Shown here piece by piece: positions 1 through 24,139 of a stretch of DNA of 24,139 nt. The DNA is taken from positions 1 through 24,139 of the IMG/VR virus record IMGVR_UViG_3300045988_181603, one strand, 5' to 3'. This DNA is from a virus. A program made the position numbers and the translations under genes. The number at the start of each line of letters is the position of its first letter. Position 1 is the stretch's first letter. Below the pieces are notes generated by a model. It was given only the letters and a program-made list of their open reading frames with translations, did not search any database and was not told where the DNA came from.

Positions 1-119
1 AATCTCTCTAATTTCCTTGCAAACATTAAAAATGTGGGTAATTCCTCGCAGAGGGCTATGCCACAGGTTAAAAATTTTTCAAAAAATCTTTCGAGCATTG
101 AAAGTAATGCAAAAAAAGG
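1..119. repeat. Terminal overlap copy 1 (identical to 24021-24139)
   Basis: Direct comparison: aatctctctaatttccttgcaaacattaaaaatgtgggtaattcctcgcag... occurs at both ends. Confidence 0.95.
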
Positions 120-3100
120 AAGTTCGGGATTATCGAAGCTACTTTCCAATATCGAAAAAATGCTTGCACTAAAAATTTCTTTTTCAGGATTCAAAGATAT
201 GTTTGAAAAATCCTCTGAATTGCTGGAAGACTTCAACTATTTTGATCAGGCATTTAATCAGGTAGCAGAAAACGCAACTAAAACCTGGTCAGAAGCAGGT
301 TACAATTCTGCTGAGGAATACACAAACTCTTTTAGTAAAAAAGCCCGCGAACTAACTTCTAAAATGTCCGGATTCGATATTTCAGATACTGGCATCTTGT
401 CGACAAATAAAACTGGCAAGTCACTCGGCATGGACCCGTCACTACTTTTGAATGCTCAAGCTACATTTGCACAAATATCTTCCTCCATGGGAACAACTTC
501 TGAACAGGCGGCCAATTTGTCCGATGCATTGACCATGTTAGGGGCAGACCTCGCATCTCTCCGAAATGAAGATTTTAGCAAAGTTTATGATAATTTGACT
601 TCAGGTTTGACCGGCATGAGTAGAGCTGTCGATAAATACGGAATCAACATTCGAGTAGCTAACTTGCAGCAGGAAGCGGCAAACCTTGGAATACAAACAT
701 CTGTTTCCAACATGAGTCAGGCTGATAAGGTTCTGTTAAGGACCATCGTTATGCTGGAAAGTTCAAAAGGAGCATGGACGGATTTATCACGGACGATTTC
801 GCTCCCAGTAAACCAAATGCGTATATTCAAGAATAATTTGGCTATGATATCCCGATTGCTAGGAAACACCTTTCTTCCGATTGTAGCAAAGGCATTGCCA
901 TATATCAACGGACTTGCGATTGCTTTTCAGCGTCTCCTAATGGGAATTGGGAATCTGACAGGAGCAAATAAGCAGATCGGGCAAATGTACGGTGGTATCA
1001 CTAAAGGTTCAGATGTGCTTTCGGATGCTCTGGACGCTGTAGATGATACAGATTTATCCGGATTGAATGATACAACAGCTGATGCGGATGATAATTTAAA
1101 GAGTGCTGCTAAAAACGCCAAAAAGTTAAAACAGTTCCTTGCGTCCTATGACGAATTGGAGGTTATGAGCAAAAACGATGATTCATCTACAAGTCTTGGC
1201 TCAACGAAACTTAAAGTACCAGCTGTAGATACATCTGCATTAGACTCAAGCATTTTAAATGATAAATTAAACAGTTTACTTGGAGAATATCAAAAACAGT
1301 GGGATGCCGCCTACAATTCCATGGAAAATAAGGCCATGGCGTTCGCTAATAAAGTGCAGAGCGCTTTTGAAGCTTTAAAAACTGCTGCCGAGCCAACGAC
1401 TCAAGCATTGCAGAAATTATGGAATGAGGGTTTGAAACAGTTCGGAAATTTTACCTGGACATCCCTGAAAGATTTTTGGGAACATTTTCTAAAACCACTT
1501 GGGAAATGGACCTTGGGTAAAAAGGGACTGCCTCGGCTGATAAATGCTTTCAACAACTTCCTGACAAAGATAAAGTGGGGAAAAATCAATAAATCTCTGA
1601 GAAAGTTCTGGGATGCACTGGAACCACTGGCCGAAAATGTCGGTACCGGTATCCTCAACTTTTTCGACGATTTGTCGGAAAAAACAAGTGGATTAGTGAA
1701 CAAGCTTCCGGGTGGCATTGATAAGATAACAGAATTGATAAAGAAAATAAAACCCGAAACTGCGCAGAAGGTCGGATACGCTATCGGGCAGATTGCCACA
1801 TCCTTACTAATGTTCAAAGGATTAAAAAGCATCTCTGGAATTATAGGGAATTCTGGCATTGGTAAGTTCATATCTCAATTGGCCAAACATCCTCTTTTGA
1901 CAATAGCAGGTGGAATAACTGCCATTGTACTGGCCCTTGATAAGTTTGGAGTGATCGATATTGACTGGAGCGGAATCAGTCAGAGCTTTGAGAATCTAAA
2001 AGAACGTGTTGTAAATTTCGCCAAAAAAATTGATTGGAAGACCGTAAGCAATAACATTCAAGAAGGCATTAAAGCCGTTACTGACAAGATATTTGATTTT
2101 ATCGATAAGATTGACTGGAATGCGCTTTGGGAAGGCCTGACAAACACAATAAGCACAGTTTGGACAGGTATCAAAGACTTTGCCGGTTCTATTCACTGGG
2201 ACACAATCAAGGACGGATTAAGTAAGTTTGCTGAGGTATTGCCAGATTTGGCAGCAGGCTTCGGGCAGTTAAGCGCGGATATAATTAATAAATTGGCAGA
2301 TGCCTTTGATTGGTTGATGACTAAACTCAGCACGCTGGATCCAGATACTCTTGAAAAAATTGGATATGGCTTAGGTGTGATTTTCGCAGTCAAAATCGGT
2401 ACGGATTTAGCTGGTAAAATATTAGGTATTGCCAGCTCTTTCTCATCTTTAGGAGTTGCTCTCAAAGGGCTGAAATGGCTAATAAAAAGCGGCGAAGCTT
2501 TGGCGAGTGGTCTTGCTGCTGTTCTTGGTACGGTTGGCGGTGCAGCAGTGATTGGAGCCGGACTTGGTATTGCTGCATCTGAACAAACTGTTGATTCTAA
2601 GGGGAAAGAGCAGCAGTTTGAAGAACAGTCGAATAATTCAAGTTCAGCTGCAAGTCAATTATCTGCTACGTTGAAAGACCTTAATGAAAGAGGAATCATT
2701 ACATCCCAGACGTTCGATACGCTTTCTACGAAGCTTAATTCTTTTGTTGCTGGGACAAGTACAACGACAATATTTACCAGTATGAGAGACGCCATGATTG
2801 AAGCAGGTGTGTCGACAGATGAGCTGGCTGTATCAATCAATAATACAAACAGTGATCTGCAGTCATTCTACAACTTGGTAGCTCATGCGAGTGAAGGTGC
2901 CGGTACCGCAGATGGTCAGATAAAATCTTTTGCAGAAGCGATTAACACAATTAATCCGGATCCAATTATATCTAAGCTGTACACTTTACAGTCTACCGAA
3001 GAGCAGATCACATTTGCAAATCTGATTGTTGAGTCCTCAAATGCAATAGATCAGATGGGTGGCATCTGGGAAAATGGAAAACAGATTCTCGGCGAAAAAG

Positions 3101-4245
3101 CTATTGCGATTTATCAGGCAATTCAGGACGGATTAAAGCCAGATGAGAACGGATTCTACAATCTCGGAAATGGTCAAATGGTGCAATTTGGCAAGGCTAT
3201 TGATGATTATGATAAGACCCTCAAAGAAAAAGCCACATCAACCCTGACAGAGCCACTAAGATTAGGAATATCCGAAGTTCTTCCAGAATACAGCTCGTTT
3301 GGTGCAGACGCAAACGGATGGTTCATCACCGGACTGACAAGCATTGACCCAAGTACCGGCGTAAAGGTACAGGAAGCATTTAAAAGCGTCCTGGATAAGA
3401 TTGATACGACTTCGGCTGAGAGCATCGGAAAGACTACCGGTACGAATATGACAAGCGGAATAACAAAGGGAATGGAAGAAAATTCCCAAGCTGTCAAAGA
3501 TGCTACAAATAAGATGATTGACGATAATGTGAAAACTCCTGCTCAAGATTCTCTCGGCATTCACTCTCCGTCGAAGTGGTTTGAAAACTTGGCGAAATTT
3601 TGCGGTTCTGGGTTCGAGAATGGGCTTGACATTGGCTTTGATGGGGCTTTTACGTGGTTCGAAGGACTGCGAGCTAAAATTAACAATAGCATTGGCTCTC
3701 TTCACAGTGTTGGATGGAACGCCATCATTGGAATGAATAACGGTATGGTCGAGGCGGCAACTCAGCATCTGTACAAGAACGCTCAGGCAATTGCTGAGAA
3801 TATTGTAAATAAATTCCGCACATTTCTCAAAATAAATAGTCCATCACGTGTTATGGCAGAGATTGGTGGTTTTACTGTTGAAGGTATGATTGCTGGTATA
3901 CAATCCAAGATTCCTCGGATGGAAAGTACAATTCAAGATATCAGCAATGAAATTAAAAGGATGCAAACACCTCCCGCTGAATTAATTCCTCAAAATTATT
4001 TTTCTCAAAAACAAAGATTTGACAGCCAAAATCAAATAGATATGAGTAGCTTTATGGATACTGTTGAAAGAGAAGTTATGGCAATCAGCAGTAATGTGTT
4101 TAATAACAATGAATATCTCGGACAAGCAGTCAGAAATAGTCTTAACGGTATGGCAATCTATGCGGACGGACACTTGATTGGATATCTCCAAGAGGAAGAC
4201 CGACAATACAGGAACAGATCTGGCTACGGACTGTTCGAAGGGTAA
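1..4245 (+). CDS. Tail tape measure protein, remainder. The track's GTG start at 34 is internal; the true start is at 23790.
   Basis: Very long helical protein. It has a Gly/Ala-rich hydrophobic central segment (GYGLGVIF...AVLGTVGGAAVIGAGLGIAA) and periodic I/F-D-W repeats. Two C-terminal xHSPS/NSPS motifs (GIHSPSKWF, KINSPSRVM) are typical of siphovirus tape measure proteins. Confidence 0.85.
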   Translation, partial: NLSNFLANIKNVGNSSQRAMPQVKNFSKNLSSIESNAKKGSSGLSKLLSNIEKMLALKISFSGFKDMFEKSSELLEDFNYFDQAFNQVAENATKTWSEAGYNSAEEYTNSFSKKARELTSKMSGFDISDTGILSTNKTGKSLGMDPSLLLNAQATFAQISSSMGTTSEQAANLSDALTMLGADLASLRNEDFSKVYDNLTSGLTGMSRAVDKYGINIRVANLQQEAANLGIQTSVSNMSQADKVLLRTIVMLESSKGAWTDLSRTISLPVNQMRIFKNNLAMISRLLGNTFLPIVAKALPYINGLAIAFQRLLMGIGNLTGANKQIGQMYGGITKGSDVLSDALDAVDDTDLSGLNDTTADADDNLKSAAKNAKKLKQFLASYDELEVMSKNDDSSTSLGSTKLKVPAVDTSALDSSILNDKLNSLLGEYQKQWDAAYNSMENKAMAFANKVQSAFEALKTAAEPTTQALQKLWNEGLKQFGNFTWTSLKDFWEHFLKPLGKWTLGKKGLPRLINAFNNFLTKIKWGKINKSLRKFWDALEPLAENVGTGILNFFDDLSEKTSGLVNKLPGGIDKITELIKKIKPETAQKVGYAIGQIATSLLMFKGLKSISGIIGNSGIGKFISQLAKHPLLTIAGGITAIVLALDKFGVIDIDWSGISQSFENLKERVVNFAKKIDWKTVSNNIQEGIKAVTDKIFDFIDKIDWNALWEGLTNTISTVWTGIKDFAGSIHWDTIKDGLSKFAEVLPDLAAGFGQLSADIINKLADAFDWLMTKLSTLDPDTLEKIGYGLGVIFAVKIGTDLAGKILGIASSFSSLGVALKGLKWLIKSGEALASGLAAVLGTVGGAAVIGAGLGIAASEQTVDSKGKEQQFEEQSNNSSSAASQLSATLKDLNERGIITSQTFDTLSTKLNSFVAGTSTTTIFTSMRDAMIEAGVSTDELAVSINNTNSDLQSFYNLVAHASEGAGTADGQIKSFAEAINTINPDPIISKLYTLQSTEEQITFANLIVESSNAIDQMGGIWENGKQILGEKAIAIYQAIQDGLKPDENGFYNLGNGQMVQFGKAIDDYDKTLKEKATSTLTEPLRLGISEVLPEYSSFGADANGWFITGLTSIDPSTGVKVQEAFKSVLDKIDTTSAESIGKTTGTNMTSGITKGMEENSQAVKDATNKMIDDNVKTPAQDSLGIHSPSKWFENLAKFCGSGFENGLDIGFDGAFTWFEGLRAKINNSIGSLHSVGWNAIIGMNNGMVEAATQHLYKNAQAIAENIVNKFRTFLKINSPSRVMAEIGGFTVEGMIAGIQSKIPRMESTIQDISNEIKRMQTPPAELIPQNYFSQKQRFDSQNQIDMSSFMDTVEREVMAISSNVFNNNEYLGQAVRNSLNGMAIYADGHLIGYLQEEDRQYRNRSGYGLFEG

Positions 4246-4292: not shown

Positions 4293-4305
4293 ATTTTCCT
4301 GGCAC

Positions 4306-4334
4306 TGGCAATATGTAGAATTTTGTGCTATAAT
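4306..4334 (+). promoter_or_regulatory. Sigma-70-type promoter with extended -10
   Basis: TGGCAA - 17 bp - TATAAT (4329-4334), preceded by TGc. Confidence 0.55.
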
Positions 4335-4340
4335 ATAAAT

Positions 4341-4474
4341 GACAATTGAATACAGATAGACAATTAATATATGTAACTAAGAAGACGACTAAAACCGTAA
4401 GCAGACGGAAAGAAAAGGAACAAATAAAAGTTCTGAAAAATATCTGCAAGCGTGTTTTTGTCGTCTTTTTTTAT
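4341..4474 (+). ncRNA. Candidate leader or small RNA ending in a long imperfect hairpin plus U-tract
   Basis: aagacgacTaaaac (from 4382) pairs with gtttttgtcgtctt (to 4467). An inner gcaga/tctgc stem closes an A-rich ~35-nt loop, and a T-run follows. The overlapping 75-aa track ORF has a non-ATG start and no RBS. Confidence 0.4.
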
Positions 4475-4659
4475 TTCAAAAAAAATGGTTTTAGTCACTT
4501 TATTGGAGCTTTTGGAAGAAAAATAAAGTTCATACCTAATTATACTGAAACATACCAGGCGTCTATGCTATGATTCGGGCAACAGGAACGGGAACTATTT
4601 TTTTTGAAACCAAAAGTCAATAATCATTATTACTAAAAACTAAAAAAGGAGGGATTTTT

Positions 4660-4854
4660 GTGAAAAATATGGATATTCGACAGGAGATTGTTCAGAAGCG
4701 GCTTAGATCATATGAAGTAGCGGCTCAAATGCATATATCTGCGTCTAGTTTCTGCAGGTGGCTTCAGACAGATCTTACGCCAGAAAGAAAAGAAAGAATC
4801 CGAATCGCAATCGATGAATTATACCGGAAGAATTTGGAGGCATGTAGTGAGTGA
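4660..4854 (+). CDS. Small helix-turn-helix DNA-binding protein
   Basis: GTG start 6 nt after AGGAGGG. HTH-like segment LRSYEVAAQMHISASSFCRWL. First gene of the pri/rep-like operon. Confidence 0.6.
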   Translation: MKNMDIRQEIVQKRLRSYEVAAQMHISASSFCRWLQTDLTPERKERIRIAIDELYRKNLEACSE

Positions 4855-5425
4855 AATTTTTAAACAAGTTAACCAAGCATTGACCTGTCAGCAAGTAGCT
4901 GAGTGCCTTGGATTTACCGTAAATTCTAAAGGTTTCACGCACAGCCCAATTAATAAAGATGAAAAGACACCATCCTGCAAAATCTATCCCGGGAACCGTG
5001 GATTTTATGATTTTAGCTCTGCCACAGGCGGCGACTCTTTGAAGTTTGCCAGTCTTGTACTGGGCGTTGACAATTGGCAAGCTGCGCAATATTTAATCGG
5101 ATATTTTAATCTCAACATTGATACAAATGGCGATATCAGCAGGGCTGAGTTTGAAAAATTAAAGCGGCAACGCGAAGCCGATCAACTGCGGAAGGCAGTT
5201 GGGAAACAAAAATGGGTCGCTGAAATGGACAACCTGAAAGCTACCATTAGTATTTGTGAGAATCTACTGGTAAGTCCACGCGTTGAACCACTGTCTGACG
5301 TTTGGTGTATGGCAGTCAATCAAAGAAACAAGGCAATCGTCAAGGTAAACAAACTGGTAGGCGTTGAGACATTTGCAGCGGATTTGAGACTACCAGAAAG
5401 AAAAGGACAGAAGAAAGTGGGGTGA
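4847..5425 (+). CDS. Primase CHC2 zinc-finger-like domain protein (degenerate, no TOPRIM domain)
   Basis: GTG at 4847 lies 6 nt after TGGAGG and overlaps the upstream stop. DEKTPSCKIY...FYDFSSATGGDSLKF resembles the DnaG/P4 zinc-binding motif (CPFHxEKTPSF...CFGCGxxGD), but the Cys/His ligands are replaced. Confidence 0.5.
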   Translation: MSEIFKQVNQALTCQQVAECLGFTVNSKGFTHSPINKDEKTPSCKIYPGNRGFYDFSSATGGDSLKFASLVLGVDNWQAAQYLIGYFNLNIDTNGDISRAEFEKLKRQREADQLRKAVGKQKWVAEMDNLKATISICENLLVSPRVEPLSDVWCMAVNQRNKAIVKVNKLVGVETFAADLRLPERKGQKKVG

Positions 5426-6459
5426 TCGCATTGATTGAGAATAAAAAAGATTCGCTTCTGCTATCGTTGGATAGTGTTGAAGAAAAAGAAATCGAATGGC
5501 TTGTACCAGAATACTTACCCAGAGGGCAAATTTGCATCATGGCGGGGGACGGCGGCTCCGGAAAGACTACAATCTGGTGTAGTTTAGCGGCTGCTATAAG
5601 TTCTGGGACGAAGGTATTTTTTGAACGGACACCAGAGGAATTTGTTGAGAAAAAGCCACAAAAGGTACTTTTCTTCAGTTCTGAAGATTCCATTGAATAT
5701 GTGCTCAAAGCCAGATTACGAAAAGCTGGGGCGAATCTCAGTAATATATTTTCTGTTAATCTAAAAAATGAAAAGTTTTCAGAAATTAAATTTAATTCAC
5801 AGTTATTGCGCGATTTAATAGAGCAAGTACAGCCGGCTCTTGTAATCTTTGATCCGGTACAATCATTTATTCCGGATGGCGCGAATATGGCAAAGAGAAA
5901 CGAGATGAGATCTTGTTTAAACCACTTAATCGGCATTGGTGAACAGTATGGGACAACGTCTTTGATCGTCGTTCACACCAATAAGCGCACTGGAGCGTTC
6001 GGGCGAAAAAGAATATCGGATAGTTCGGATATTTGGGATATTGCGAGATCGGCGTTAGTCGTCGGGAACGTGTCAGGGAGCAATTTGCGCTATATGTCGC
6101 AGGAAAAATCAAACTACGGAGAATTAGCGCAGACAGCTTTGTTCAGCATAGATGATTCTGGCGCACACCTGGAAGAATATACAGACCGCCGAGACGCAGA
6201 CTTTGTTCGGGAGCAGGACTTCGAAGGCAGACAGGCACCGCAACGACAGGACGCTGAACAATTTATCAAGGATTTCCTGAGAGGCGGCAAAAAACCAACA
6301 TCAGAACTTGATGAAGCGGCACAAGCTGCAGGAATTAGTCGTTCAAGCCTGACAAGAGCTAAAACGAAGTTACGGAAGGATAATGTAATGAATGTGAAGT
6401 CCGAAGGTTTTGGCGGAAACAAAGTATTTTACAGCTACTTACTCGACCAGCGTTCATAG
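5422..6459 (+). CDS. RecA-fold AAA_25/RepA-like replicative helicase with a C-terminal winged-helix region
   Basis: Walker A GDGGSGKTT, Walker B-like LVIFDPV, SLIVVHTNK. C-terminal HTH-like AGISRSSLTRAKTKL. Start overlaps the upstream stop (GTGA). Confidence 0.75.
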   Translation: MIALIENKKDSLLLSLDSVEEKEIEWLVPEYLPRGQICIMAGDGGSGKTTIWCSLAAAISSGTKVFFERTPEEFVEKKPQKVLFFSSEDSIEYVLKARLRKAGANLSNIFSVNLKNEKFSEIKFNSQLLRDLIEQVQPALVIFDPVQSFIPDGANMAKRNEMRSCLNHLIGIGEQYGTTSLIVVHTNKRTGAFGRKRISDSSDIWDIARSALVVGNVSGSNLRYMSQEKSNYGELAQTALFSIDDSGAHLEEYTDRRDADFVREQDFEGRQAPQRQDAEQFIKDFLRGGKKPTSELDEAAQAAGISRSSLTRAKTKLRKDNVMNVKSEGFGGNKVFYSYLLDQRS

Positions 6460-6473
6460 AGGAAAATTTTAAA

Positions 6474-6666
6474 TGAGTGAGTAAGCTTGAAATCCTTTAT
6501 TTATAAGGGTTCCACTTACTCATCAATGTGAGTGAGTAAAGAGAAAGTGGAGTTACTTATTCACTCACCATGCGGAGTAAGCTAGAACCGCATAAACAGA
6601 GGGTTTGACGTTTATTCACTCACTTATCCGGTTTGTCAATGACATGGGAGAAGTAAGGAGTAAGCA
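6474..6666. repeat. Iteron-like cluster (GAGTGAGTAAG / GAGTAAG core in both orientations); candidate origin for the adjacent helicase
   Basis: Plus-strand copies at 6475-6485, 6530-6540, 6575-6582 and 6658-6665. Inverted copies at 6514-6522, 6556-6566 and 6612-6621. Confidence 0.55.
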
Positions 6667-6736: not shown

Positions 6737-6985
6737 ATGACCTCATTTAAACAGAGTACATATTGGAGCATCTGGGGCGATGCCTGCCGGATACATCAAA
6801 GATATTACGGAACCGCAGAATCAAATGACGCTGCATGGCAATCGCTTATTCAGGAATCTACCGCTTTTAGAAATAAATATAAAAATTCAGATTGTAGTGA
6901 ATTCGCAGAGCAGATGATTTTACTGATTTGTTCTGAGATAAATAAAAAATCGAAAGGAGGTAACACCGATGCCGAGAAGAAATAA
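6737..6985 (+). CDS. Hypothetical protein (82 aa)
   Basis: ATG 6 nt after AAAGGAG; no recognisable motif. Confidence 0.5.
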   Translation: MTSFKQSTYWSIWGDACRIHQRYYGTAESNDAAWQSLIQESTAFRNKYKNSDCSEFAEQMILLICSEINKKSKGGNTDAEKK

Positions 6986-7126: not shown

Positions 7127-7735
7127 ATGTCAAACGAATTAATCCGAAAGCGAGATGAGCATGGCGTTCGCATCGCAGGTGCATATTCCAAAAAATACTG
7201 CAAAGACAATGAAGAACTCGGTGATATGCCTGATTTATCGGCCATATTAGGCGTAGCCATTGAACAATTAAATGTCAGAAAAGCTGGCCGAATTCCAGAT
7301 TATGCAGATGATCCGCAGGGAATCGAAAGTTTTGTTTCTGCAACCCAGATGTATTTTGAATATATCACAGAAGCCAATCGCCAAAATGACGAGAAGCTGA
7401 TTCCAGATATAGAGGGGTGGTGTTTGTTCATCGGCGTAACTAAACAGACGGTCCTTAACTACGCCAAACGGAATAATACCTGGAAGGAATTGATTGATTA
7501 CATCAAAGAAAGCATACTCTCAGCAAAGAAACAGCTTGCTTTTCGTTTCAAGATTCCGCCTGTTGTCTATTTGAACGACGTGGCGAATAATCATGGTTAC
7601 CTCAATACAAACGAATTTAAGATAACTACATCTTCAGATTCTGGAATTAATGCTCCAACTCAGACAGCACAGCAGATTGCAGCCAAACACAGAACAGCTC
7701 TGGAGCTTCCGGAAATGGAGAAACCTGTTTTATAA
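7127..7735 (+). CDS. Terminase small subunit-like HTH protein, paralog 1
   Basis: Layout typical of Firmicutes siphophage TerS: MYFEYI...IPDIEGWCLFIGVTKQTVLNYAK...ILSAKKQL...VYLNDVANNHGY. ATG at 7127 follows AAGGTAGG. Confidence 0.55.
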   Translation: MSNELIRKRDEHGVRIAGAYSKKYCKDNEELGDMPDLSAILGVAIEQLNVRKAGRIPDYADDPQGIESFVSATQMYFEYITEANRQNDEKLIPDIEGWCLFIGVTKQTVLNYAKRNNTWKELIDYIKESILSAKKQLAFRFKIPPVVYLNDVANNHGYLNTNEFKITTSSDSGINAPTQTAQQIAAKHRTALELPEMEKPVL

Positions 7736-7825: not shown

Positions 7826-8338
7826 ATGCCGAAAAATAATTATCCAAATGCTGAAATTGACCGTTTACCAGATGAATTTGTGGAAACTTCTATAAATTCT
7901 CTTCAGGAACTGGCAGCACTCGGGAAAATATCATGTAAACCAGAGCAAGATGAAGAATTTGAACAGAGAGTTTCCCAAATTATAGATTTCTGCAAGCGTA
8001 AGAAAATGAGACCAGGTATCGAAACTTTATGCGCTGGACTCGGAATAACCAGACAAACGTTGAATGACTGGGAAAAAGGAACCTTTGGAGTGTCTGAACG
8101 CAGAAAAGAATCCGTACGGCAAGTCAAACAATTGATATATGCTTTTCTTGAACAAGCTGGTATGTCTGGGAAAATTCATCCTACTACATATATCTGGCTG
8201 ACAAAAAACTGGCAAAAATATTCAGAAAATTCTCCGATTGATACAGAAATTGCATATACAAATAAACCAAAAGAAAGTCTGGAGCAGATTAAAGAGGAAT
8301 TCGGAGGATTGCTTCTCAACTCAGATCAGCAATATTGA
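7826..8338 (+). CDS. Terminase small subunit-like HTH protein, paralog 2
   Basis: IIDFCKRKKMRPGIETLCAGLGITRQTLNDWEKG...VKQLIYAFLEQAGMSGKIHPTTYIWLTKNW matches the TerS architecture. GGAGG RBS. Confidence 0.6.
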   Translation: MPKNNYPNAEIDRLPDEFVETSINSLQELAALGKISCKPEQDEEFEQRVSQIIDFCKRKKMRPGIETLCAGLGITRQTLNDWEKGTFGVSERRKESVRQVKQLIYAFLEQAGMSGKIHPTTYIWLTKNWQKYSENSPIDTEIAYTNKPKESLEQIKEEFGGLLLNSDQQY

Positions 8339-8413: not shown

Positions 8414-8707
8414 ATGGAGAATAATAATTTATATAAAATAATCGGAATCGCCACATATACAGGAATCTCAAAAAGCACTAAGAAACCGTACACAATGAAA
8501 ACACTTGAGGTTGAATTCAATGAAACGCCGGCACAGGTCAAAACATTCTCGGACGCACCTGTTCAGATCGGGGATTATGCCAAAATCGGCTTGGGAATCA
8601 AAAAAACACTATATGGCACAGAACTGGTTCCATCAGTGGACGAAATCGTACCTGCTGCCAATGTGGAATCTCAGAAAGGAACAGGTGACGCAAATGACAG
8701 TAAATGA
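8414..8707 (+). CDS. Hypothetical protein (97 aa)
   Basis: AAGGAG RBS; no recognisable motif. Confidence 0.55.
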   Translation: MENNNLYKIIGIATYTGISKSTKKPYTMKTLEVEFNETPAQVKTFSDAPVQIGDYAKIGLGIKKTLYGTELVPSVDEIVPAANVESQKGTGDANDSK

Positions 8708-9085: not shown

Positions 9086-9165
9086 AAGGAAAGTCAGAAC
9101 ACACAAAAGGCGGCCTGCCCTCTTCGGAGGGGTAACCCTCCAGACGAAAGAAAGGAGGGATGCCA

Positions 9166-14090: not shown

Positions 14091-14100
14091 ATATTACAGG

Positions 14101-14989: not shown

Positions 14990-15359
14990 GAATGCGTTGC
15001 AGGCGAAGTTACAATCAGATCGTGAGAATCGTGCGCATATTCCAGAGCAGAATACAGAATCTAAAATGAAACAAGTCCTCTCAGCTACCAGCACAGTACC
15101 TCAGCCAAAGCAGAAAAAGAAACCAAAGAAAGAAACACATAAGACATTCACAACATGGGTAGAAAAACAGAAGCTAGCCGAATGGAAAGCATATATTGCA
15201 ACAAAGAACATTAAGTCTGAAGACCTGGCATTATATGCTATTCAGCATTGGATTGATCAGGTTGCACCAATTACGCCAGAAGAACAAGAAGATTATCACA
15301 GAAATTTAGAACATGAGTTGGCAGATATTGATAAGGATGCACGGTTGAAAAAGAAATAG
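14976..15359 (+). CDS. Small centromere-binding protein, ParG-like RHH (type Ib partner)
   Basis: ATG 6 nt after GGAGG, overlapping the parA stop. Basic disordered N-terminus, then KTFTTWVEKQKLAEWKAYIATKNIKSEDLALYAIQHWI (strand-helix-helix pattern). Confidence 0.55.
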   Translation: MAINKNALQAKLQSDRENRAHIPEQNTESKMKQVLSATSTVPQPKQKKKPKKETHKTFTTWVEKQKLAEWKAYIATKNIKSEDLALYAIQHWIDQVAPITPEEQEDYHRNLEHELADIDKDARLKKK

Positions 15360-15890: not shown

Positions 15891-16697
15891 ATGACACGAG
15901 AAGCATTACAAGAACAAAATAAGCAACTTCTTCAGGAACTGAAAGAAGCCAGAGCGCAGATTCAGCGGCTACAACAGATGGTTGAGAAATTAAATGATGC
16001 AACTGATGAAGCCTATCTCAAATCAAGATATTATGAAGCTGATCAGGCCTGCATGAAGTATTTAAAGAATCAAGTAGAAACATTAAAGAGCCAGCTTTCA
16101 AATAGCCAGGAAAAGAACCGGAAAGCAAATGAAGAAATCAAGCTGCTGAATTTAGAGAGGGATTCTGCCATTGAAAACATGGCATACGCTCAAGACATAC
16201 GAAGCGACGCTTACAAAGATTCATGGCACTACAAGACGTTAACCCATGAACTTGAAGTTGCTCATAGTGATTGTAGACGGTTAAAATTTGCGAATAAACA
16301 GCTTCAAGAAAGCAATGAAGTCCTTCAGCAAAAGGTTGAGGACTTGAAATACAGTGTTGAGGAACGGCATAAAGAAACAATAGAAGCGTACAAGTCTATG
16401 TCTGAAATGCGTGATAAGCACGAGAAAGAACTTTCAAAGTCACAGCGGAAAATCTGGAAACTGGAAGACGAGAATAAAAAGTTTCAGGAACGTTCGGAAA
16501 ATTTGAAGAATCCGTTTAGAGCCGGCAGGAAGAAGAACAATGATAAACAGAAAGAAAAGTATAAGATGTTCAGTAACCTTGTCAGAGCGGGAATCTCCAT
16601 GGAGAACATCATGGAAACTATGCAGATTAGTCGCAGTACTTATTTCAGATTTTTGAAAAGACATAAAGAAGATTGTATGAATAATAGCAGTAAATAA
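15891..16697 (+). CDS. Coiled-coil protein with a C-terminal resolvase-type (HTH_7-like) helix-turn-helix
   Basis: AAAGGAG RBS. About 200 aa of heptad-rich sequence, then GRKKNNDKQKEKYKMFSNLVRAGISMENIMETMQISRSTYFRFLKR. Confidence 0.6.
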   Translation: MTREALQEQNKQLLQELKEARAQIQRLQQMVEKLNDATDEAYLKSRYYEADQACMKYLKNQVETLKSQLSNSQEKNRKANEEIKLLNLERDSAIENMAYAQDIRSDAYKDSWHYKTLTHELEVAHSDCRRLKFANKQLQESNEVLQQKVEDLKYSVEERHKETIEAYKSMSEMRDKHEKELSKSQRKIWKLEDENKKFQERSENLKNPFRAGRKKNNDKQKEKYKMFSNLVRAGISMENIMETMQISRSTYFRFLKRHKEDCMNNSSK

Positions 16698-17031: not shown

Positions 17032-17955
17032 ATGGATTTAGCAGAGCATATCTGGAGCACGGATGAAAATAATGAATTGAAAAAACGAGAGATAGACACT
17101 CGTGAATCTGTCCGGACTGTTACATCAAATCAATTTATAACAGCCTGTGGGTTGGAAAATATAAGCCTAAAGGCAAGGAAACTTCTATATGTAGCAATTG
17201 GCCAGTGCAGAGTAACGGATACAGAATTTTATGAGTATTCTCTTTCTGTTAGGGATTTTGCCGCATTGATGGATGTGGACCCCAGTAATGTTTACAGAGA
17301 GGGAGAGTCAATTGCGGATGAACTTTCTAAGGGGTTTATAAAAATCAAACCGGAAAGCAGCACTGTTAAATTCAAGAATTATCCGTTATTCGCGGAATGC
17401 TATATGGACAATGCTAATATCGTTTTTGCTTTAAATAAGCGAATGACCGATTATTTTCTCATGATAAAGGGGAGCTTTACACAGCCATTACTGGCAGATT
17501 TCTTAAAAATGAAAAGTCCTTACAGCATGGCAATTTGGCATCTTATGCAACGAGAGATGAACAGTCAGAAGCCAGGATTAACTCAGACAATAGCTTTTCA
17601 ATTAAGTTTGCAGGAGATACGAGAAGTTACCGGCACTCAGAAGAAATTTGAACGTTTAAGCGATATTAAAAGATATGTGTTGGATAAAGCAATTAGAGAA
17701 ATCGAAGAGAATTGTGGCGTTGTGATCACATACACAAATATCAAGAGAGGTAGAACTGTGACGGGATTTCAGTTTGAGGCAGTATCTGAATTTCATGTAG
17801 ATCCATCTAAAATTAAGCAGTCTACCAGAAATAAAGTAAATGTGAGAAAAACACAGCCGATGATAGAACCCCCAAATAGCGTAAAAAAATCTGCAAATAA
17901 AAATGAAGTACCTGGACAGGAAAGCATATTTGATATTTTGGAAAAATTGCAGTAG
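17032..17955 (+). CDS. rep: Rep_3 (RepB-like) theta-replication initiator protein
   Basis: VTSNQFITACGLENISLKARKLLYVAIGQ..., YSMAIWHLMQ..., LSLQEIREVTG...RLSDIKRYVLDKAIREIEENCGVVITYTNIKRGRTVTGFQFE match the Rep_3 pattern. Iterons lie upstream. A TGaTATGAT -10 lies near 16994. Confidence 0.85.
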   Translation: MDLAEHIWSTDENNELKKREIDTRESVRTVTSNQFITACGLENISLKARKLLYVAIGQCRVTDTEFYEYSLSVRDFAALMDVDPSNVYREGESIADELSKGFIKIKPESSTVKFKNYPLFAECYMDNANIVFALNKRMTDYFLMIKGSFTQPLLADFLKMKSPYSMAIWHLMQREMNSQKPGLTQTIAFQLSLQEIREVTGTQKKFERLSDIKRYVLDKAIREIEENCGVVITYTNIKRGRTVTGFQFEAVSEFHVDPSKIKQSTRNKVNVRKTQPMIEPPNSVKKSANKNEVPGQESIFDILEKLQ

Positions 17956-18178: not shown

Positions 18179-19162
18179 ATGGATTTATCTACAATAGAAA
18201 AGGAAATTCAAACTGTTATTGAAGCAGATAAAGCATCATGGATAAGAATTTATCAGTTGATGTCAGAGGTAGAATCAGAGAAATTATATGAGAATACTTA
18301 TAGCTCCTATACTCAATGGGTAAATAAAATTGCTGAGAACATGCATATTCATGTATCACTGTTATGGCGCAGAAAAAAAGCAGGAGCTTTTTATAGTGAA
18401 TATTTAAAGCGAATGGAAGCCAGAGGAAAGAAAGTTTCTTTTGATGATATTGAGAGAGTATCACCAGACAATTTAGTTCTGGCAGAGAGAATTGCTGGTA
18501 ATAATACTGCAATTGCGGATCAGCTGATTGAGAAAATACAGCAAGGAGAACTTAAGCGAAAAGACTTATCAAGCGCATTGGCAGCAGCTAAACGTTGTCG
18601 AGCTGAAAAAGGTATTCCTGATCCAGTTAATGGGTATGATAAGCAGAAGCTCCAAGAGCAGAAAGAAACAGACGAAGCAATCAAACCTGATCAGAAAAAA
18701 ATTACTGCAATGGATATTATGGCAGCTCTTGAGATATACCGGCATTGGATAGGAGAGCCTATTGAGAAGCAGGGACGGGTACCAAAATATAAAGTATTTG
18801 GAGAATTTGCTGTTGATTCTCCGGGAACACGAAATGCCAGGAGAATTGACGCTTTAGTTGCAGAAACAATTACTGCAAAATATCCCAGACAAATAAAATT
18901 GCATGGAATTGAGATAAAAGTATCTCGATCAGATTTAGAACATGATGATAAAATGGCAGAATATACCCAGTATGTTGACTGCTTCTGGATTGCAATACCA
19001 CCGCATCTTGTGGATGATGCTAAGGACCTGGCAATGCCTTGTTGGGGAATTTTATCTGTTGACGAAGAAAAACTGGAAGTAGTTCGAAATGCTTCTAACA
19101 ATGCGGAATATGGCATATTCAGAGATGTTGCGCTGTCAGAAATCATATATAAATTAATGTAG
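18179..19162 (+). CDS. Two-domain protein: N-terminal helical/DNA-binding-like region + C-terminal MmcB-like PD-(D/E)xK nuclease fold
   Basis: RRIDALVAE...LHGIEIKVSRSDLEHDDKMAEYTQYVDCFWIAIP resembles the D...E-x-K core and K-x-x-Y segment of the MmcB/DUF1052 family. Confidence 0.5.
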   Translation: MDLSTIEKEIQTVIEADKASWIRIYQLMSEVESEKLYENTYSSYTQWVNKIAENMHIHVSLLWRRKKAGAFYSEYLKRMEARGKKVSFDDIERVSPDNLVLAERIAGNNTAIADQLIEKIQQGELKRKDLSSALAAAKRCRAEKGIPDPVNGYDKQKLQEQKETDEAIKPDQKKITAMDIMAALEIYRHWIGEPIEKQGRVPKYKVFGEFAVDSPGTRNARRIDALVAETITAKYPRQIKLHGIEIKVSRSDLEHDDKMAEYTQYVDCFWIAIPPHLVDDAKDLAMPCWGILSVDEEKLEVVRNASNNAEYGIFRDVALSEIIYKLM

Positions 19163-19835: not shown

Positions 19836-19904
19836 AGGCAAAAACGATGTGAGTATCCATGTTGGTACTCGAAAAGCCCCGGAGGTACGAACTCCGGGGC
19901 TTTT
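19836..19904 (+). ncRNA. Candidate type I antitoxin sRNA (RNA II-like, ~68 nt)
   Basis: Runs from the promoter above to the intrinsic terminator. It carries AAAAACGATGTGA and TCCATGTTGG, which also occur at 20014-20040 and are therefore complementary to the minus-strand toxin mRNA start region. Confidence 0.55.
19872..19904. terminator. Bidirectional intrinsic terminator shared by the convergent sRNA and toxin mRNA
   Basis: AAAA-gccccggag-gtacgaa-ctccggggc-TTTT. Confidence 0.75.
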
Positions 19905-19949
19905 CTATTCCGTTTAGGCAGGGTGGCTTGTTCCCTAGGCTGGCTACCT

Positions 19950-20036
19950 TTACTTATCTCCATCCAACCATTTGCAAATGTAGTAGGCAACTACACTCGC
20001 CAAAATAGAGAGTAAAAACGATGTGAATAACTCCAT
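19950..20036 (-). CDS. Type I toxin candidate, Fst/Ldr-like, 28 aa, not in the ORF track
   Basis: MELFTSFLLSILASVVAYYICKWLDGDK: one TM helix plus a charged tail. GGGGGTGA SD 7 nt upstream. Minus-strand TGaTATAAT -10 at 20093-20085. Confidence 0.6.
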   Translation of the reverse strand: MELFTSFLLSILASVVAYYICKWLDGDK

Positions 20037-20261
20037 GTTGGACTCACCCCCTCTCTGCACCTGTCTAGGGGCGGTAGCTCAACCATTATATCATAATTTG
20101 TTCTGTAAAACATTTCTTTTTTATTTCCCCAAAATCGAATTCGAATTCACTTTTTTAGTTCCTGACAGTGAAATGAGCAATCATTCATCCTCTATCAGGA
20201 CTTTTTTATTTTCGGAGTTTTTTATCATTATGTAATTGTCAAAGAAAAACGACAGGAGCTT

Positions 20262-20634: not shown

Positions 20635-21486
20635 ATGGGACACAAAAATAAAAAATCATTAATCCGGCAGACTCAGGAAAGGCTGGATAGTATGCTTGCG
20701 ATTGGTCAGAGCAAATACGAGGACAAAAAATTAGATCTTACAGAGAGAAAAATATATAGCTGGAATACCTATCGGAGCTATCTGCAACAATGCTGCCAGT
20801 TCGTCCGGTATTGCAGAGACAATCATCATTGTAAGAATCTGGCAGACTGCCGACAGTACGTGGGAGAATGGATGGAGAGCCGGAAGGACCTTTCAGCATA
20901 TACTCAGAAGCTGTCTGCAAGTGCACTCTGTAAGCTATATGGCGAATCCCTGGAAGAACTAGAGATAACCACCAAACGAGCCGCCAGAAGCGAAATAACA
21001 CGCTCCAGAGGGACAGCGAAAAGGGATGCACATTTCTCAGAACAGAAAAACGCTGATTTTGTCGAATTTTGCCGCTCAACCGGTTTACGACGGTCAGAAA
21101 TAACAAAGCTCCGCGGAGATCAGCTCATTGAGAGGGATGGCGAACATTATATCTGTATCACTGGAAAGGGAGGAAGGTACCGGGAAGCTCCTGTATGTGG
21201 CAATGTGGAGCTTGTGATCAGAAAGATGCAGGCAGCAGGGACAGGGAAAGTATGGAAAAAAGTGCCGTCAAATGCTGATATTCATTCATATCGGGCGGAT
21301 TATGCGACAAGGATATATTCCAGTCATGCCCGACCAATTGAAGAGATTCTGCAGAAAGAGCGGTATATTTGCCGGAAAGATAAAGCAGGGATTGTGTACG
21401 ATAAGGTTGCCATGTTAGAAGCATCAAAAGCACTTGGACATAACAGGATCAGTGTTGTGGGGGAGCATTATCTCCGGATAGAGTAA
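20635..21486 (+). CDS. Tyrosine recombinase (phage integrase / Xer-like family)
   Basis: GLRRSE (Arg I), GKGGRYR (Lys), IHSYRADYAT (His-x-x-Arg), LGHNR, GEHYL (Tyr nucleophile). ATG 6 nt after GGGAGGGA. Confidence 0.9.
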   Translation: MGHKNKKSLIRQTQERLDSMLAIGQSKYEDKKLDLTERKIYSWNTYRSYLQQCCQFVRYCRDNHHCKNLADCRQYVGEWMESRKDLSAYTQKLSASALCKLYGESLEELEITTKRAARSEITRSRGTAKRDAHFSEQKNADFVEFCRSTGLRRSEITKLRGDQLIERDGEHYICITGKGGRYREAPVCGNVELVIRKMQAAGTGKVWKKVPSNADIHSYRADYATRIYSSHARPIEEILQKERYICRKDKAGIVYDKVAMLEASKALGHNRISVVGEHYLRIE

Positions 21487-21547: not shown

Positions 21548-22663
21548 TTAATTTCTTTCTATGTATTTTGGCATAAAGTATGCAGAATTGTGACCGTCCC
21601 ACTTATTAACAGCATAATTTATAATTTTGCCATAAAGAGTTATATATGTTCCCGGTGCGAAATCGCTTCCGCTATATCCTGTGTTCAAAGAATACAAAAT
21701 ACCCAGATCTTTACTACTGCCGTAACTGTCAGTGTCTTTAGAATAAATTCCAACCATGCTTATTGTTTTGTCAAGATTGTATTTTTGTATTAATTCCATG
21801 ACTTGCGCATCATAATATTTTTTAGAATTAATTACACCAGAATCTTCTATGTACAATTTGACTTTTACATACTCGCCTTCAAGGTTAATGTCAGAAAACG
21901 CAATATCTTCATACCACATTTCTTTGCACCTTGACTTAAAATCCTGTTCTGATAATTCAACTCCTTCAATAATTTTTCCGGACTCATTTGAATAATCTTG
22001 TTTGCCTTGTTCAAATAATTGAGCCGGTTCACCACCAGTAGCAGATATATTAGAGTTGTCCAATTGGACTTCCCCGAGAGATATTCCATTAACAAGCCCT
22101 GTAACTGTCATATAATCACCCTCGGACAAATCTGAACGCGGTTCGAGAAGAGTCACATAGAATTTTCCGGCAGCATCATTGTCAATCTCGACAATATCTT
22201 CGCTTGCATAACTGATAGGGGCAGATATGGTAACATATTGATTGTTATATTCCTCGTAGTTATCAAACAGCTTTAGAGCTGGAAGAACAGTGGAATCTTC
22301 TATTGAAACTGGTTGTGGCACTGGGGTAGAAGTCGGCTCAGGGATAGGAGTATCTGTGATTTTTACATCTGAGGTTTCGGATGCCTTAGAACTAGAATCA
22401 GAATTATTCGTTCCAAAATGTCGCCCTGTCATAGCTACCACAACTATAATGATTATTACATATGATAAGCACCCAAGGTTTTGAGACTGAGCACCTTGAA
22501 CCTTTTGAGCTTTTTGAGCTTTACGGGCTTTTTTTAATTCCTTCTTATCCCTTCTTTCCTGTATAATTTCTGATGCACTTCTAAAAGGATGCCCGCAATA
22601 GGGACATACATCAGCGTGCCGGCTTATCTTGCGTTTGCAATCCGGGCATTTCATCAATCCCAT
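21548..22663 (-). CDS. Zinc-ribbon, single-pass membrane protein with a Pro/Thr linker and large extracytoplasmic domain
   Basis: CPDCKRKISRHADVCPYCGH zinc ribbon, Lys-rich segment, TM helix YVIIIIVVVAMTG, PIPEPTSTPVPQP linker. Strong GAAGGAGG RBS. Confidence 0.75.
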   Translation of the reverse strand: MGLMKCPDCKRKISRHADVCPYCGHPFRSASEIIQERRDKKELKKARKAQKAQKVQGAQSQNLGCLSYVIIIIVVVAMTGRHFGTNNSDSSSKASETSDVKITDTPIPEPTSTPVPQPVSIEDSTVLPALKLFDNYEEYNNQYVTISAPISYASEDIVEIDNDAAGKFYVTLLEPRSDLSEGDYMTVTGLVNGISLGEVQLDNSNISATGGEPAQLFEQGKQDYSNESGKIIEGVELSEQDFKSRCKEMWYEDIAFSDINLEGEYVKVKLYIEDSGVINSKKYYDAQVMELIQKYNLDKTISMVGIYSKDTDSYGSSKDLGILYSLNTGYSGSDFAPGTYITLYGKIINYAVNKWDGHNSAYFMPKYIERN

Positions 22664-23040: not shown

Positions 23041-23053
23041 CAAAAGATATTTA

Positions 23054-23082
23054 AGCATCTGCAAATGAGCAGGTGCTTTTTT
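23054..23082 (+). terminator. Plus-strand intrinsic terminator directly after the promoter-like array
   Basis: agcatctgc / gcaggtgct stem. Its U-G pair is valid only on the plus strand. TTTTTT follows. Confidence 0.65.
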
Positions 23083-23117: not shown

Positions 23118-23288
23118 ATGATGGTATTCGATGTAATCAAATTATTAACAACAGTTTTTTTAGCCCTGGTAGGAGGATATTTTTGCGTGAATGCCTGGAA
23201 CGAACGTGACGATTCAAATAACTTGATGGGAAATACGATTTGTGGTTTATTCATGATCCTGTCATTGGTTTGTATCTGGTATAAATAG
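23118..23288 (+). CDS. Small two-TM membrane protein (56 aa; alternative start 23121)
   Basis: AGGAG RBS. VIKLLTTVFLALVGGYFCV and ICGLFMILSLVCIWY hydrophobic helices. Confidence 0.5.
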   Translation: MMVFDVIKLLTTVFLALVGGYFCVNAWNERDDSNNLMGNTICGLFMILSLVCIWYK

Positions 23289-23300: not shown

Positions 23301-23711
23301 ATGTTGAGAAAAAAGAAATTTTCGTTGAATAAAAGAAGCGAGCATATTGTTTCCTGCGATTTTCGGAAGATTCCGGACTACATATACAATAATGCCGGTA
23401 TCAAGCGAGAAGAAATAATACAGTTTCCTCTGGTGCGCATGGAAGGGCAAAATAAATTACTGATAAATGAGAATGACCCAGATTGGGAAGTTCTCTCAAT
23501 GTATTTATCTGCTCTGGATACACTTCCTGATCAGATTCTCATGGATTTGTATGGACTTTATGATAAAGAGTGCAAAGGAGTTACACTTCAAACTGTAAGA
23601 GGTTGTTCAGATACAGAAACTGCACGAAATATTATCTATATCGTTCTCCCAGAAATCTTATGGTGTCATGGTAATGTAACAATCAAAGGGAAAATTTTCC
23701 CAGATAAATAG
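23301..23711 (+). CDS. Hypothetical protein (136 aa)
   Basis: ATG 7 nt after AGGAGGG; no recognised motif. Confidence 0.55.
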   Translation: MLRKKKFSLNKRSEHIVSCDFRKIPDYIYNNAGIKREEIIQFPLVRMEGQNKLLINENDPDWEVLSMYLSALDTLPDQILMDLYGLYDKECKGVTLQTVRGCSDTETARNIIYIVLPEILWCHGNVTIKGKIFPDK

Positions 23712-23726: not shown

Positions 23727-23761
23727 AAGACGTCTGTCAATATGGCAGGCGTCTTTTTTTG
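23727..23761 (+). terminator. Intrinsic terminator immediately upstream of the tape measure gene
   Basis: aagacgtctg / caggcgtctt stem (one U-G pair on the plus strand) followed by TTTTTTT. Confidence 0.7.
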
Positions 23762-23789
23762 TACTCGGATTCCATAGAAAGGAGTAAAC

Positions 23790-24139
23790 ATGGCAGATAA
23801 TACAATTGACAGTCTTTCCATTGAAATTAGTAGTAATGCTTCCGGAGCTTCTCGCTCAATCACTAATTTGTGTAACAGACTTGAACGGTTAGATAGAACA
23901 ACATTTTCTGGAATAAAAAATTTAAAACGGTATTCCCGACAAATGAACGAGCTTAACGAAGCTGCACGAAAATTAAATAGTGTCAAGTTCAACAACAAGC
24001 TCTTTAATTTAAAGACTCCCAATCTCTCTAATTTCCTTGCAAACATTAAAAATGTGGGTAATTCCTCGCAGAGGGCTATGCCACAGGTTAAAAATTTTTC
24101 AAAAAATCTTTCGAGCATTGAAAGTAATGCAAAAAAAGG
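23790..24139 (+). CDS. Tail tape measure protein, 5' part (continues at position 1 across the circular junction)
   Basis: ATG at 23790 lies 6 nt after AAAGGAG. The frame is open to the window end and is in frame with the 34..4245 track ORF after subtracting 24020. Full protein = 77 + 1414 = 1491 aa. Confidence 0.8.
   Translation, partial: MADNTIDSLSIEISSNASGASRSITNLCNRLERLDRTTFSGIKNLKRYSRQMNELNEAARKLNSVKFNNKLFNLKTPNLSNFLANIKNVGNSSQRAMPQVKNFSKNLSSIESNAKK
24021..24139. repeat. Terminal overlap copy 2 (identical to 1-119)
   Basis: Same as above. Consistent with an assembler k-mer overlap on a circular contig. Confidence 0.95.

Follow-up and report, generated by a model that had tools for sequence, protein, structure and literature searches.

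Several kinds of phage satellite described so far come close to the element presented here. PISPs and cf-PISPs are satellite-plasmids of Vibrio crassostreae, proposed in 2025-2026 and inferred from gene content, and relatives outside Vibrio were not found (Nat Commun 2026;17:4870, PMC13230959). PLEs, on the other side, form chimeric tails with a tape measure protein (TMP) of their own, next to which they encode a chaperone and a hub; putative tmp genes were noted in other satellites (PMC12987554), while the EPIPs of Mycolicibacterium encode a TMP as well (bioRxiv Dec 2025, PMC12822802). The subject of this analysis is a circular element of 24,020 bp, recovered as IMG/VR virus record IMGVR_UViG_3300045988_181603; the whole stretch analysed, of 24,139 nucleotides, is called the window. 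The element is probably a phage-inducible satellite-plasmid of Blautia (Lachnospiraceae), whose helpers would be temperate siphophages of about 75-78 kb. A plasmid that is also a helper-dependent satellite had been proposed in the original prediction, made from the letters of the window, and this idea is now supported by a candidate helper family in the same host genus, by the tails of two small-terminase-like (TerS) proteins, by a copied leader cassette, by modules found in integrated PICI-like islands and by purifying selection on the TMP. The novelty assumed in that prediction is out of date: a TMP is by now known from PLEs and EPIPs (PMC12987554, PMC12822802), and the lifestyle of a plasmid satellite has its precedent in PISPs and cf-PISPs (PMC13230959). 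In the literature, no equivalent satellite-plasmid from the gut or from Lachnospiraceae was found.

The circularity of the element is indicated by a 119-bp terminal direct repeat, bases 1-119 being identical to 24021-24139 in a within-contig comparison. In window coordinates, owing to this duplication, the TMP gene that wraps the junction (23790..24020 + 1..4245, 1491 aa) resumes at base 120. GC content ranges from 33 to 43% across the window and one strand holds nearly all genes. Within the assembly collection, 521 blocks list the exact Rep protein and 672 the exact antirepressor (ANT); the exact ParA is present on at least 974 contigs and the exact ANT on at least 414. The longest contigs bearing Rep or ANT are almost all of 22-24 kb (22.6-24.1 kb), with the same circular map opened at varied break points, and the largest, of 47.6 kb and 53 kb, correspond to about two unit lengths; by comparison, chromosomal genes in the same collection sit on megabase-size contigs. 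Among hundreds of assembly contigs the element backbone was never seen inside a chromosome. The single circle reported earlier is thus borne out by the terminal repeat and the permuted contigs. An assembly artefact or chimera would have in its favour that the window is a single metagenomic contig, and its probability is practically negligible since many independent assemblies, made in various projects and with various assemblers, give one and the same gene order on 22-24 kb contigs that are circular permutations of each other. The contig is not a fragment of a larger phage either, an outcome that the original prediction had foreseen as damaging. As to the host, two RefSeq proteins are assigned to 'Blautia sp.', namely WP_287649955.1, which equals the exact ParA, and WP_287649976.1, related to TerS1 at the level of a 90% cluster; the assignment was made by exact-protein look-ups, the scan of a genome collection having given only two hits to metagenome-assembled genomes. 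The copies in GenBank and IMG/VR are filed as 'Bacteriophage sp.' or UViG. In a 53,019-bp contig (L009), the TMP gene occurs at both ends of a 20.7-kb stretch and more than two unit lengths stand in tandem; either a concatemer or dimer truly exists, or the assembler went round the circle more than once.

About 30 open reading frames (ORFs) of the window were profiled against Pfam and PHROG families. Among the ORFs tested, capsid, portal, large terminase (TerL), tail tube, lysis, relaxase and type IV secretion system (T4SS) families gave no match, in agreement with the absences noted at first, and neither did capsid, protease or portal genes of the PISP/cf-PISP type. The TMP is the sole structural gene, and the complete virion set of a phage-plasmid is missing. 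A conjugative or mobilisable plasmid was considered and rejected, there being no relaxase or T4SS match and just ArdC-N at E = 0.009. In NCBIfam, neither the TMP nor TerS1, TerS2 and the ParA partner matched any family, and a near-identity DNA search of PLSDB and INPHARED recovered no annotated relative of the element, the matches being just one 82-bp plasmid stretch and a 4-kb 'Bacteriophage sp.' TMP fragment.

Candidate helpers belong to a family of temperate siphophages, and the size ratio of 24 kb to about 77 kb is near one third, as for SaPI/80alpha and P4/P2. In these phages the TMP gene stands in a row with chaperone-like genes, DUF6711, a gene for a 1444-1524-aa Big_3/LRR receptor-binding protein and a CHAP lysin, and a holin and a DGR-type reverse transcriptase are found near the tail genes; one TMP homologue is named 'Siphoviridae sp. 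ctv0N24 minor tail protein'. A prophage with the replication module of the family is integrated in a 185-kb contig, and the glutamate dehydrogenase, citrate synthase and aminotransferase encoded on its flanks have identical counterparts in Blautia obeum, which indicates that element and phage share a host genus. A co-resident related siphophage, to which the original prediction had pointed, therefore has a candidate family in Blautia. The phages carry a 202-aa homologue of the TerS-like genes of the element (one allele matches GP3_package at 26.4 bits), located directly after a leader terminator and a ribosome-binding site. A variable region splits this gene from TerL; LemA-like genes lie directly before TerL, which leaves the 202-aa gene as the sole TerS candidate upstream of it. 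In the phage loci L017, L020, L052 and L153-L155, a DNA methylase interrupted by a Hint domain, a DGR reverse transcriptase and LemA-like genes were also observed; the recombinase by the replication genes is of the tyrosine or large serine type, and the 6-10 kb between the TerS-like gene and TerL are hypervariable.

Element and phages have homologues of TMP, TerS, ANT and resolvase in common, a fact which could suggest a decayed phage-plasmid remnant or a deletion derivative of the 77-kb phage. Such an origin is very unlikely. The shared genes are just 27-65% identical, which argues against a recent deletion, and Rep_3, ParA, its partner and the tyrosine recombinase are without homologue in the sampled phage loci, so that the element does not appear to derive from the phage by deletion. 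Moreover, the phage integrates and has a replication of the DnaD/DnaC type. The element is conserved in hundreds of assemblies, and its 4.5-kb ORF is intact and subject to purifying selection.

The highest nucleotide identity between element and phages, 81-84%, lies at 4324-4479 (about 160 bp, matched in dozens of phage loci). The phage counterpart of this segment is placed directly upstream of the TerS-like gene (for example at L101:9299-9488, L054:9530-9719 and L052:9298-9488), and the copy in the element heads the operon g4660-pri-helicase-ori-TerS1-TerS2. In a wider search the cassette was found in 91 loci and 43 distinct versions, phage and plasmid variants pooled, and the plasmid variants resemble differing phage variants. 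A promoter-like site opens the cassette, followed by a leader predicted to fold into a long hairpin (minimum free energy -33.6 kcal/mol, z = -5.15) with a terminator-like U-run at its end; the leader has no family match in Rfam. The cassette may represent a promoter-leader-terminator unit under antitermination, like lambda pR'-tR'.

The genes that follow the leader make up the SaPI/PICI-style module named in the original prediction, with a pri-like gene, a helicase and adjacent iterons, and the family matches support it (Table 1). As in PICIs, the pri-rep module is accompanied by an iteron origin 3' of the helicase gene. The GAGTGAGTAA iterons occur twice per orientation, a count reached in 0 of 100 shuffles. 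When relatives are compared, the inverted iteron arrays after the helicase or primase gene vary by helicase type: GAGTGAGTAA in the window (6475-6621) and in L012, GGGGTAGTAA in L144 (9476-9700), ACCATTGATA in L009 (4235-4481) and TGTGCAATT in L150 (18418-18623) and L010 (3816-4002). This co-variation is as expected of a replicase-specific origin.

Two TerS-like genes without a TerL, again a feature of PICIs, follow in the same operon. Both proteins match phrog_606 'terminase small subunit' (E 3e-7 and 3e-8), and PF16677 is found on nearly all database homologues of TerS1. The structure of TerS1 was modelled from 24 homologues (pLDDT 68, with a confident core at residues 60-160), and its five top matches in the PDB are all the P22 small terminase gp3, 3P9A, at a probability of 0.95-0.99 and a TM-score of 0.53-0.58 on target; a sequence search of PDB chains with TerS1 and TerS2 found nothing. 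These lines of evidence, although weaker than for other genes of the element, favour the two small terminases first proposed over generic helix-turn-helix (HTH) regulators, which the prediction had named as the alternative.

The relationship to the phages is concentrated at the C-termini. In the phages, the TerS-like gene ends in either of two C-terminal tails, A (..QTAQQIAxKHRxALELPEMEKPxL) or B (..KPxESLEQIKEEFGGLL..), which are joined to differing bodies. TerS1 shares 68-85% identity with phage tail A over its last 25-37 aa, against at most 33% for the remainder of the protein, and TerS2 ends in the alternative tail, B. Within the TerS family of the satellites, conservation centres on the middle domain, whereas tails are exchanged between members; in the model of TerS1 the tail forms a separate helix past a disordered linker. 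In phage P22, TerL binds gp3 through the C-terminal tail of the latter. Tail type tracks TerL type only partly, tail B being found for the most part with a single type of TerL, and a simple specificity code between tail and TerL was therefore rejected.

The third link to the helpers is the 1491-aa TMP, whose identification stands. It matches phrog_28918 (1e-118) and phrog_1535 'tail length tape measure protein' (8e-33), and several further TMP families of PHROG match its C-terminal 200 residues; there is no match to a Pfam TMP domain. Full-length phage homologues (47-65% identity) have 1607-1988 aa and are encoded on phage contigs of about 74-79 kb, the TMP of the element being shorter by about 120-490 residues. 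It is thus, as in PLEs, homologous to a helper TMP, here that of the candidate helpers. The N-terminal 640 and the C-terminal 230 residues are the conserved parts, and the identity to phage proteins is mosaic, reaching up to 95% in 100-aa windows. Between close plasmid variants dN/dS is 0.08-0.11, which points to a functional protein and not to a relic. Furthermore, two IMG/VR fragments of the element (L018 and L019) come from plasmids that are otherwise identical, TerS1 and TerS2 included (100%), and their TMP alleles are only 62-68% identical, so that the TMP looks like a swappable cassette.

The same genes could also serve against phages. On a plasmid devoted to defence or interference, they would encode decoys, with TerS-like proteins poisoning phage packaging and the TMP poisoning tail assembly, and the plasmid itself would not be transduced. 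Helper-matched TerS tails and a divergent TMP would disrupt assembly equally well, functions interfering with assembly are carried by satellites and PICIs (PMC11364771, PMC12987554), and neither a pac site nor a capsid-remodelling gene was identified in the element. This explanation is nevertheless unlikely. A full PICI-type replication module with its origin, placed behind a phage late leader, answers a need of amplification and packaging and not of a decoy; a TMP of full length, with both ends conserved and dN/dS at about 0.1, suggests that it functions as a structural protein; integrated satellite-like islands hold the same modules; and PADLOC, run on ten proteins of unknown role, gave no credible defence match.

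These islands, known from Blautia and Schaedlerella, carry pri, helicase, TerS, 136-aa protein and TMP modules beside genes for integrases and repressors and excisionase-like genes. In Ca. Blautia faecipullorum (L140/L141), the island lies beside ffh-rpsP and includes an xis-like gene, pri, a D5_N primase, TerS (56% identity), a repressor and an integrase. In Schaedlerella/'Ruminococcus sp.' (L144-L147), a repressor, a cro-like gene, pri, AAA_25 (66%) and TerS (56%) are accompanied by a 138-aa homologue of the 136-aa protein (36%) and by an 1818-aa TMP-like protein (24%). In a Blautia luti-like genome (L150/L151), the genes between rpmB and asp23 comprise a zinc-ribbon protein, the 55-aa and 136-aa proteins, TMP (76%), pri, D5_N and an integrase; the two contigs measure 88.8 kb and 64 kb, and the island takes up about 16 kb of a Blautia-like chromosome. 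Over all islands, identity to the element is 30-32% for pri, 66% for AAA_25, 56% for TerS, 24-76% for TMP and 36-51% for the 136-aa protein. The integrase and chromosomal site that characterize PICIs are present in the related islands L140, L144 and L150; the element has just a small XerC-like recombinase. What it has of a satellite-plasmid is an episome with replication and partition genes and hallmark genes homologous to those of integrated satellites.

Several observations weigh against a satellite-plasmid. The Pfam scores of TerS1 and TerS2 for GP3_package (28.0 and 20.1 bits) are under the cut-off of 29.4, and the fold match to 3P9A has an E of about 0.1. In the phages, the TerS-like gene is found 6-10 kb upstream of TerL (phrog_38, 1e-50). 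Three or more TerL types, some of them just about 39% identical, are found together with tail A, which implies that the partner of the tail may not be TerL. The island of L150/L151 has the TMP block and no TerS, and neither a tail assembly chaperone nor a capsid-size determinant was found in the element. As to the leader, covariation amounts to one compensatory pair in 18; the sequences are too alike for more, hence the structure depends on folding energy, and its regulatory role is read from architecture. Encapsidation, induction by the helper, dependence on it and transfer are likewise deduced from the sequence, every step past gene content, homology and shared sequence being an inference.

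Part of these observations would suit an ordinary cryptic plasmid, in which the GP3-like proteins would regulate transcription, the large protein would have a role outside the virion (e.g., in the cell envelope) and similarity to phages would be due to gene flow alone. To the TerS scores under curated thresholds and the distance of the phage gene from TerL can be added the labels 'XRE family regulator', given by one database source to a homologue of TerS2, and 'bacterial regulatory protein', given by the same source to a phage homologue. Set against this are the small terminase as top fold match, the phage TMP homologues in canonical tail modules, the modules common to integrase-bearing islands of PICI architecture and the copy of a phage late leader, and a cryptic plasmid of this kind is quite improbable.

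For the satellite-plasmid, the following cycle can be proposed. In the quiescent state Rep_3 would replicate the circle, ParA and its partner would partition it, and the recombinases would keep it monomeric, with a possible contribution of the toxin-antitoxin loci to its stability. A helper prophage resident in the cell may be derepressed by the Bro-N/KilAC antirepressor, in the way that epsilon of P4 acts on P2. In the late phase of the helper, a factor reading through the phage TerS cassette would also read through the copy in the element, thereby switching on pri, the helicase and both TerS genes; the hairpins before the 55-aa gene and before the TMP may answer the same signal. The helicase would then amplify the element from its second origin. 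TerS1 and TerS2, with helper-type tails A and B suited to both helper lineages and with DNA-binding bodies that differ, would recruit the helper TerL to the DNA of the element, and headfuls of plasmid concatemer would be packaged; as the element shows no gene for capsid size, multimers may just as well be packaged by the headful as monomers in small heads. Finally, the shorter TMP would enter tails derived from the helper and give chimeric tails, as shown for PLEs.

The plasmid backbone, with the other features of the window, is listed in Table 1. The direct iterons of Rep_3 stop 66 bp upstream of rep, and initiator, adjacent direct iterons and an autonomous circular extrachromosomal molecule together correspond to a Rep_3 theta plasmid. 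Of the toolkit first predicted, the Rep_3 initiator with its iterons, the serine resolvase and the Bro-N/KilAC antirepressor are confirmed by profile hidden Markov model (HMM) matches, and the tyrosine recombinase is supported by weak ones. ParA is confirmed too, while its partner, described at first as a ribbon-helix-helix (RHH) protein, matches no family in Pfam, PHROG or NCBIfam. A second set of ATAGAT-rich repeats at 15354-15410 makes, with the first, a pair flanking parAB. The two putative type I toxin-antitoxin loci are plausible: the Fst-like peptides lie beside weak matches to small RNAs, antisense-like at 9252-9373 (RsaJ, 27 bits) and SpF66 at 19861-20078 (28.7 bits, the gathering score being 42). 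Over 82 bp the latter region has 82.6% identity to a Ligilactobacillus salivarius plasmid, and this locus also adjoins the TMP in the integrated island L150. The 139-aa protein, encoded divergently to the downstream operon, could be the regulator of the element.

Table 1. Genes, repeats and signals of the window (positions in window numbering; a full stop marks features without strand).
Feature	Position	Strand	Basis
Terminal direct repeat	1..119 = 24021-24139	.	signature of circle in assembly
TMP gene, 5' part	23790..24139	+	long ORF across junction
TMP gene, remainder	1..4245	+	PHROG TMP families
Promoter-like site CTGGCA-18-TGnTATAAT, head of shared leader cassette	4305..4334	+	motif
Leader folding to long hairpin, terminator-like U-run at end	4382..4480	+	folding and phage identity
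64-aa protein, first gene past leader	4660..4854	+	phrog_17740
pri-like protein, CHC2 (DnaG-type) zinc ribbon	4814..5425	+	Zn_ribbon_DnaG 1e-4
AAA_25 (RepA/DnaB-like) replicative helicase	5422..6459	+	AAA_25 4e-27
Candidate satellite-type origin, GAGTGAGTAA iterons x4	6475..6621	.	directly 3' of helicase gene
82-aa conserved satellite-core protein	6737..6985	+	homologues in islands L140, L150
TerS1, P22-gp3-like small terminase, C-terminal tail A (..QTAQQIAAKHRTALELPEMEKPVL)	7127..7735	+	HMM and fold
TerS2, paralogous, small-terminase-like, C-terminal tail B (..KESLEQIKEEFGGLL..)	7826..8338	+	HMM
97-aa conserved satellite-core protein	8414..8707	+	conservation across islands
Candidate type I toxin, 31-aa hydrophobic peptide with basic tail	9160..9255	+	Fst-like
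Serine resolvase/invertase	9431..10006	-	Resolvase 8.5e-33
139-aa protein, weak Arc/RHH-like match	10283..10702	-	homologue in island L150
108-aa conserved protein	11085..11411	+	68% identical to protein of integrated island L140
Bro-N/KilAC antirepressor (ANT)	12908..13696	+	Bro-N 4e-21, ANT 1e-33
Candidate centromere, ATAGAT-rich repeats with AGCTAGACC, upstream of parA	14100..14165	.	sequence only
ParA partition ATPase	14219..14989	+	AAA_31, 4e-48
ParA partner, 127 aa, candidate ParB/centromere-binding protein	14976..15359	+	position and conservation
268-aa coiled-coil protein, C-terminal HTH	15891..16697	+	family/feature search
Rep_3 iterons, about 22 bp x5.5	16847-16966	.	repeat search
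Rep_3 replication initiator (WH1 and WH2 domains)	17032..17955	+	Rep3_N 1.9e-21, Rep3_C 2.4e-15
327-aa protein, C-terminal MmcB-like/PD-(D/E)XK domain	18179..19162	+	weaker family match
Candidate type I toxin-antitoxin locus, peptide ..MELFTSFLLSILASVVAYYICKWLDGDK	19861..20078 (peptide 19950-20060)	-	Fst-like
Small XerC-like tyrosine recombinase	20635..21486	+	weak: Phage_integrase 1.4e-5, XerC-like 3e-9
371-aa zinc-ribbon membrane protein, TcaA-like N-terminus	21548..22663	-	conserved beside TMP block
Terminator-like hairpin past TTGATATAAT boxes, just upstream of 55-aa gene	23053..23078	+	hairpin search
55-aa protein, predicted hydrophobic (membrane-like) stretch	23121..23288	+	conserved with TMP
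136-aa protein	23301..23711	+	always directly upstream of TMP, plasmids and islands
Terminator-like hairpin between 136-aa gene and TMP start	23727..23755	+	hairpin search

Upstream of the 55-aa, 136-aa and TMP genes, four promoter-like TTGATATAAT boxes are spread over 22786-23032, and around this block three terminator-like sites were found against 0.5 expected. A role of the 136-aa protein as tail assembly chaperone was considered and is not supported (hhalign against phage chaperones, probability 0.1); its profile found nothing among PDB sequences, its close homologues numbered only four, and the AlphaFold model (pLDDT 38) was unusable. The 371-aa zinc-ribbon protein is kept next to the TMP block in the plasmids and in island L150 (36% identity), superinfection exclusion being one possibility for its role.

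Variants of the plasmid hold the backbone and exchange accessory modules, among them a LytTR regulator, SocA/Panacea, YoeB-Phd and IS110; in others a D5_N primase replaces AAA_25, one or two TerS genes are present, and some have lost Rep_3. A divergent relative of 19.8 kb, L032 (IMGVR_UViG_3300029234_000025), has ParA and recombinase 84% and Rep 51% identical to those of the element. Its single TerS bears tail A, its TMP-like protein of 1172 aa shares only 21% identity, and adaptation to another helper is possible.

If confirmed, these findings would extend the satellite-plasmid lifestyle from marine Vibrio to Lachnospiraceae, a dominant family of the human gut. The likely partners can be named, i.e., hosts of the Blautia obeum group, a family of 77-kb temperate siphophages and a 24-kb plasmid, and they would form a tractable system for studying how satellites have the helper terminase recognise them through short C-terminal tails, how they tap the late-gene control of the helper and why they bear a tape measure of their own. 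For the bookkeeping of viromes, such circles would count neither as phages nor as ordinary plasmids, and they could transduce cargo, such as toxin-antitoxin or defence modules, between gut strains. A more ambitious reading joins all these elements in a highly prevalent satellite-plasmid of the human gut, without earlier example either outside Vibrio or among Gram-positive hosts, in which the leader senses the helper, the dual TerS tails hedge between helpers and the TMP is the only virion part supplied; taken as a whole it is tentative and rather doubtful. According to it, the TMP may let satellite particles inject into lysogens that exclude the helper TMP or, alternatively, the TMP and the adjacent small membrane proteins may block helper tail assembly in the manner of Rta.

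Compared with the known systems, PISPs and cf-PISPs have in common with the element a circular episome with parA and repA, satellite hallmark genes, the lack of a classical integrase (with a small tyrosine recombinase in cf-PISPs) and a proposed vertical inheritance as plasmid combined with horizontal spread in helper-derived particles. They differ in being gammaproteobacterial, 11-16 kb long and defined by capsid-related genes (capsid, protease, portal), whereas the element belongs to Gram-positive gut Clostridia, measures 24 kb and carries, in place of a capsid gene, a TMP, two TerS genes and an antirepressor. PLEs also have their own TMP, which differs in length from that of the helper and is built into tails otherwise made of helper parts, as is predicted for the element; unlike it, they are integrated, parasitise a lytic myovirus and encode a tail assembly chaperone and a baseplate hub, of which no candidate was found among the ORFs of the element, and their TMP is about 20% identical to that of the helper, against 47-65% here.

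With SaPIs and other PICIs the element has in common the pri-rep genes, the iteron origin that directly follows the helicase gene on its 3' side, a TerS unaccompanied by TerL, the lack of capsid and lysis genes and, apart from the TMP, of tail genes, and modules whose relatives lie in islands of PICI architecture. These satellites are chromosomal, of about 10-15 kb, with an attachment-site integrase, whereas the element, at 24 kb and without these, adds a plasmid backbone, a TMP and a second TerS gene. P4, with P2 as helper, resembles it in persisting as a plasmid and in a genome of about one third of that of the helper, and resembles the cycle proposed for it in an antirepressor (epsilon) that derepresses the helper prophage and in late genes cross-activated by helper late regulators; it differs in using the helper cos site instead of a TerS, in Sid capsid remodelling, in its integrase, in having no TMP and in its unrelated sequence. 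EPIPs encode TerS and TMP and have particles with tails of altered length; they differ by head-tail connector and scaffold/capsid-related genes, a serine integrase, the lack of antirepressors and actinobacterial hosts, and no plasmid backbone was reported for them. Lacking the integration of PICIs, the capsid gene of PISPs and cf-PISPs and the chaperone and hub of PLEs, the element would work like these systems and is a member of none; it is set apart by its Gram-positive gut host, its high prevalence, the TMP as only virion gene, the dual helper-matched TerS tails and the copied leader.

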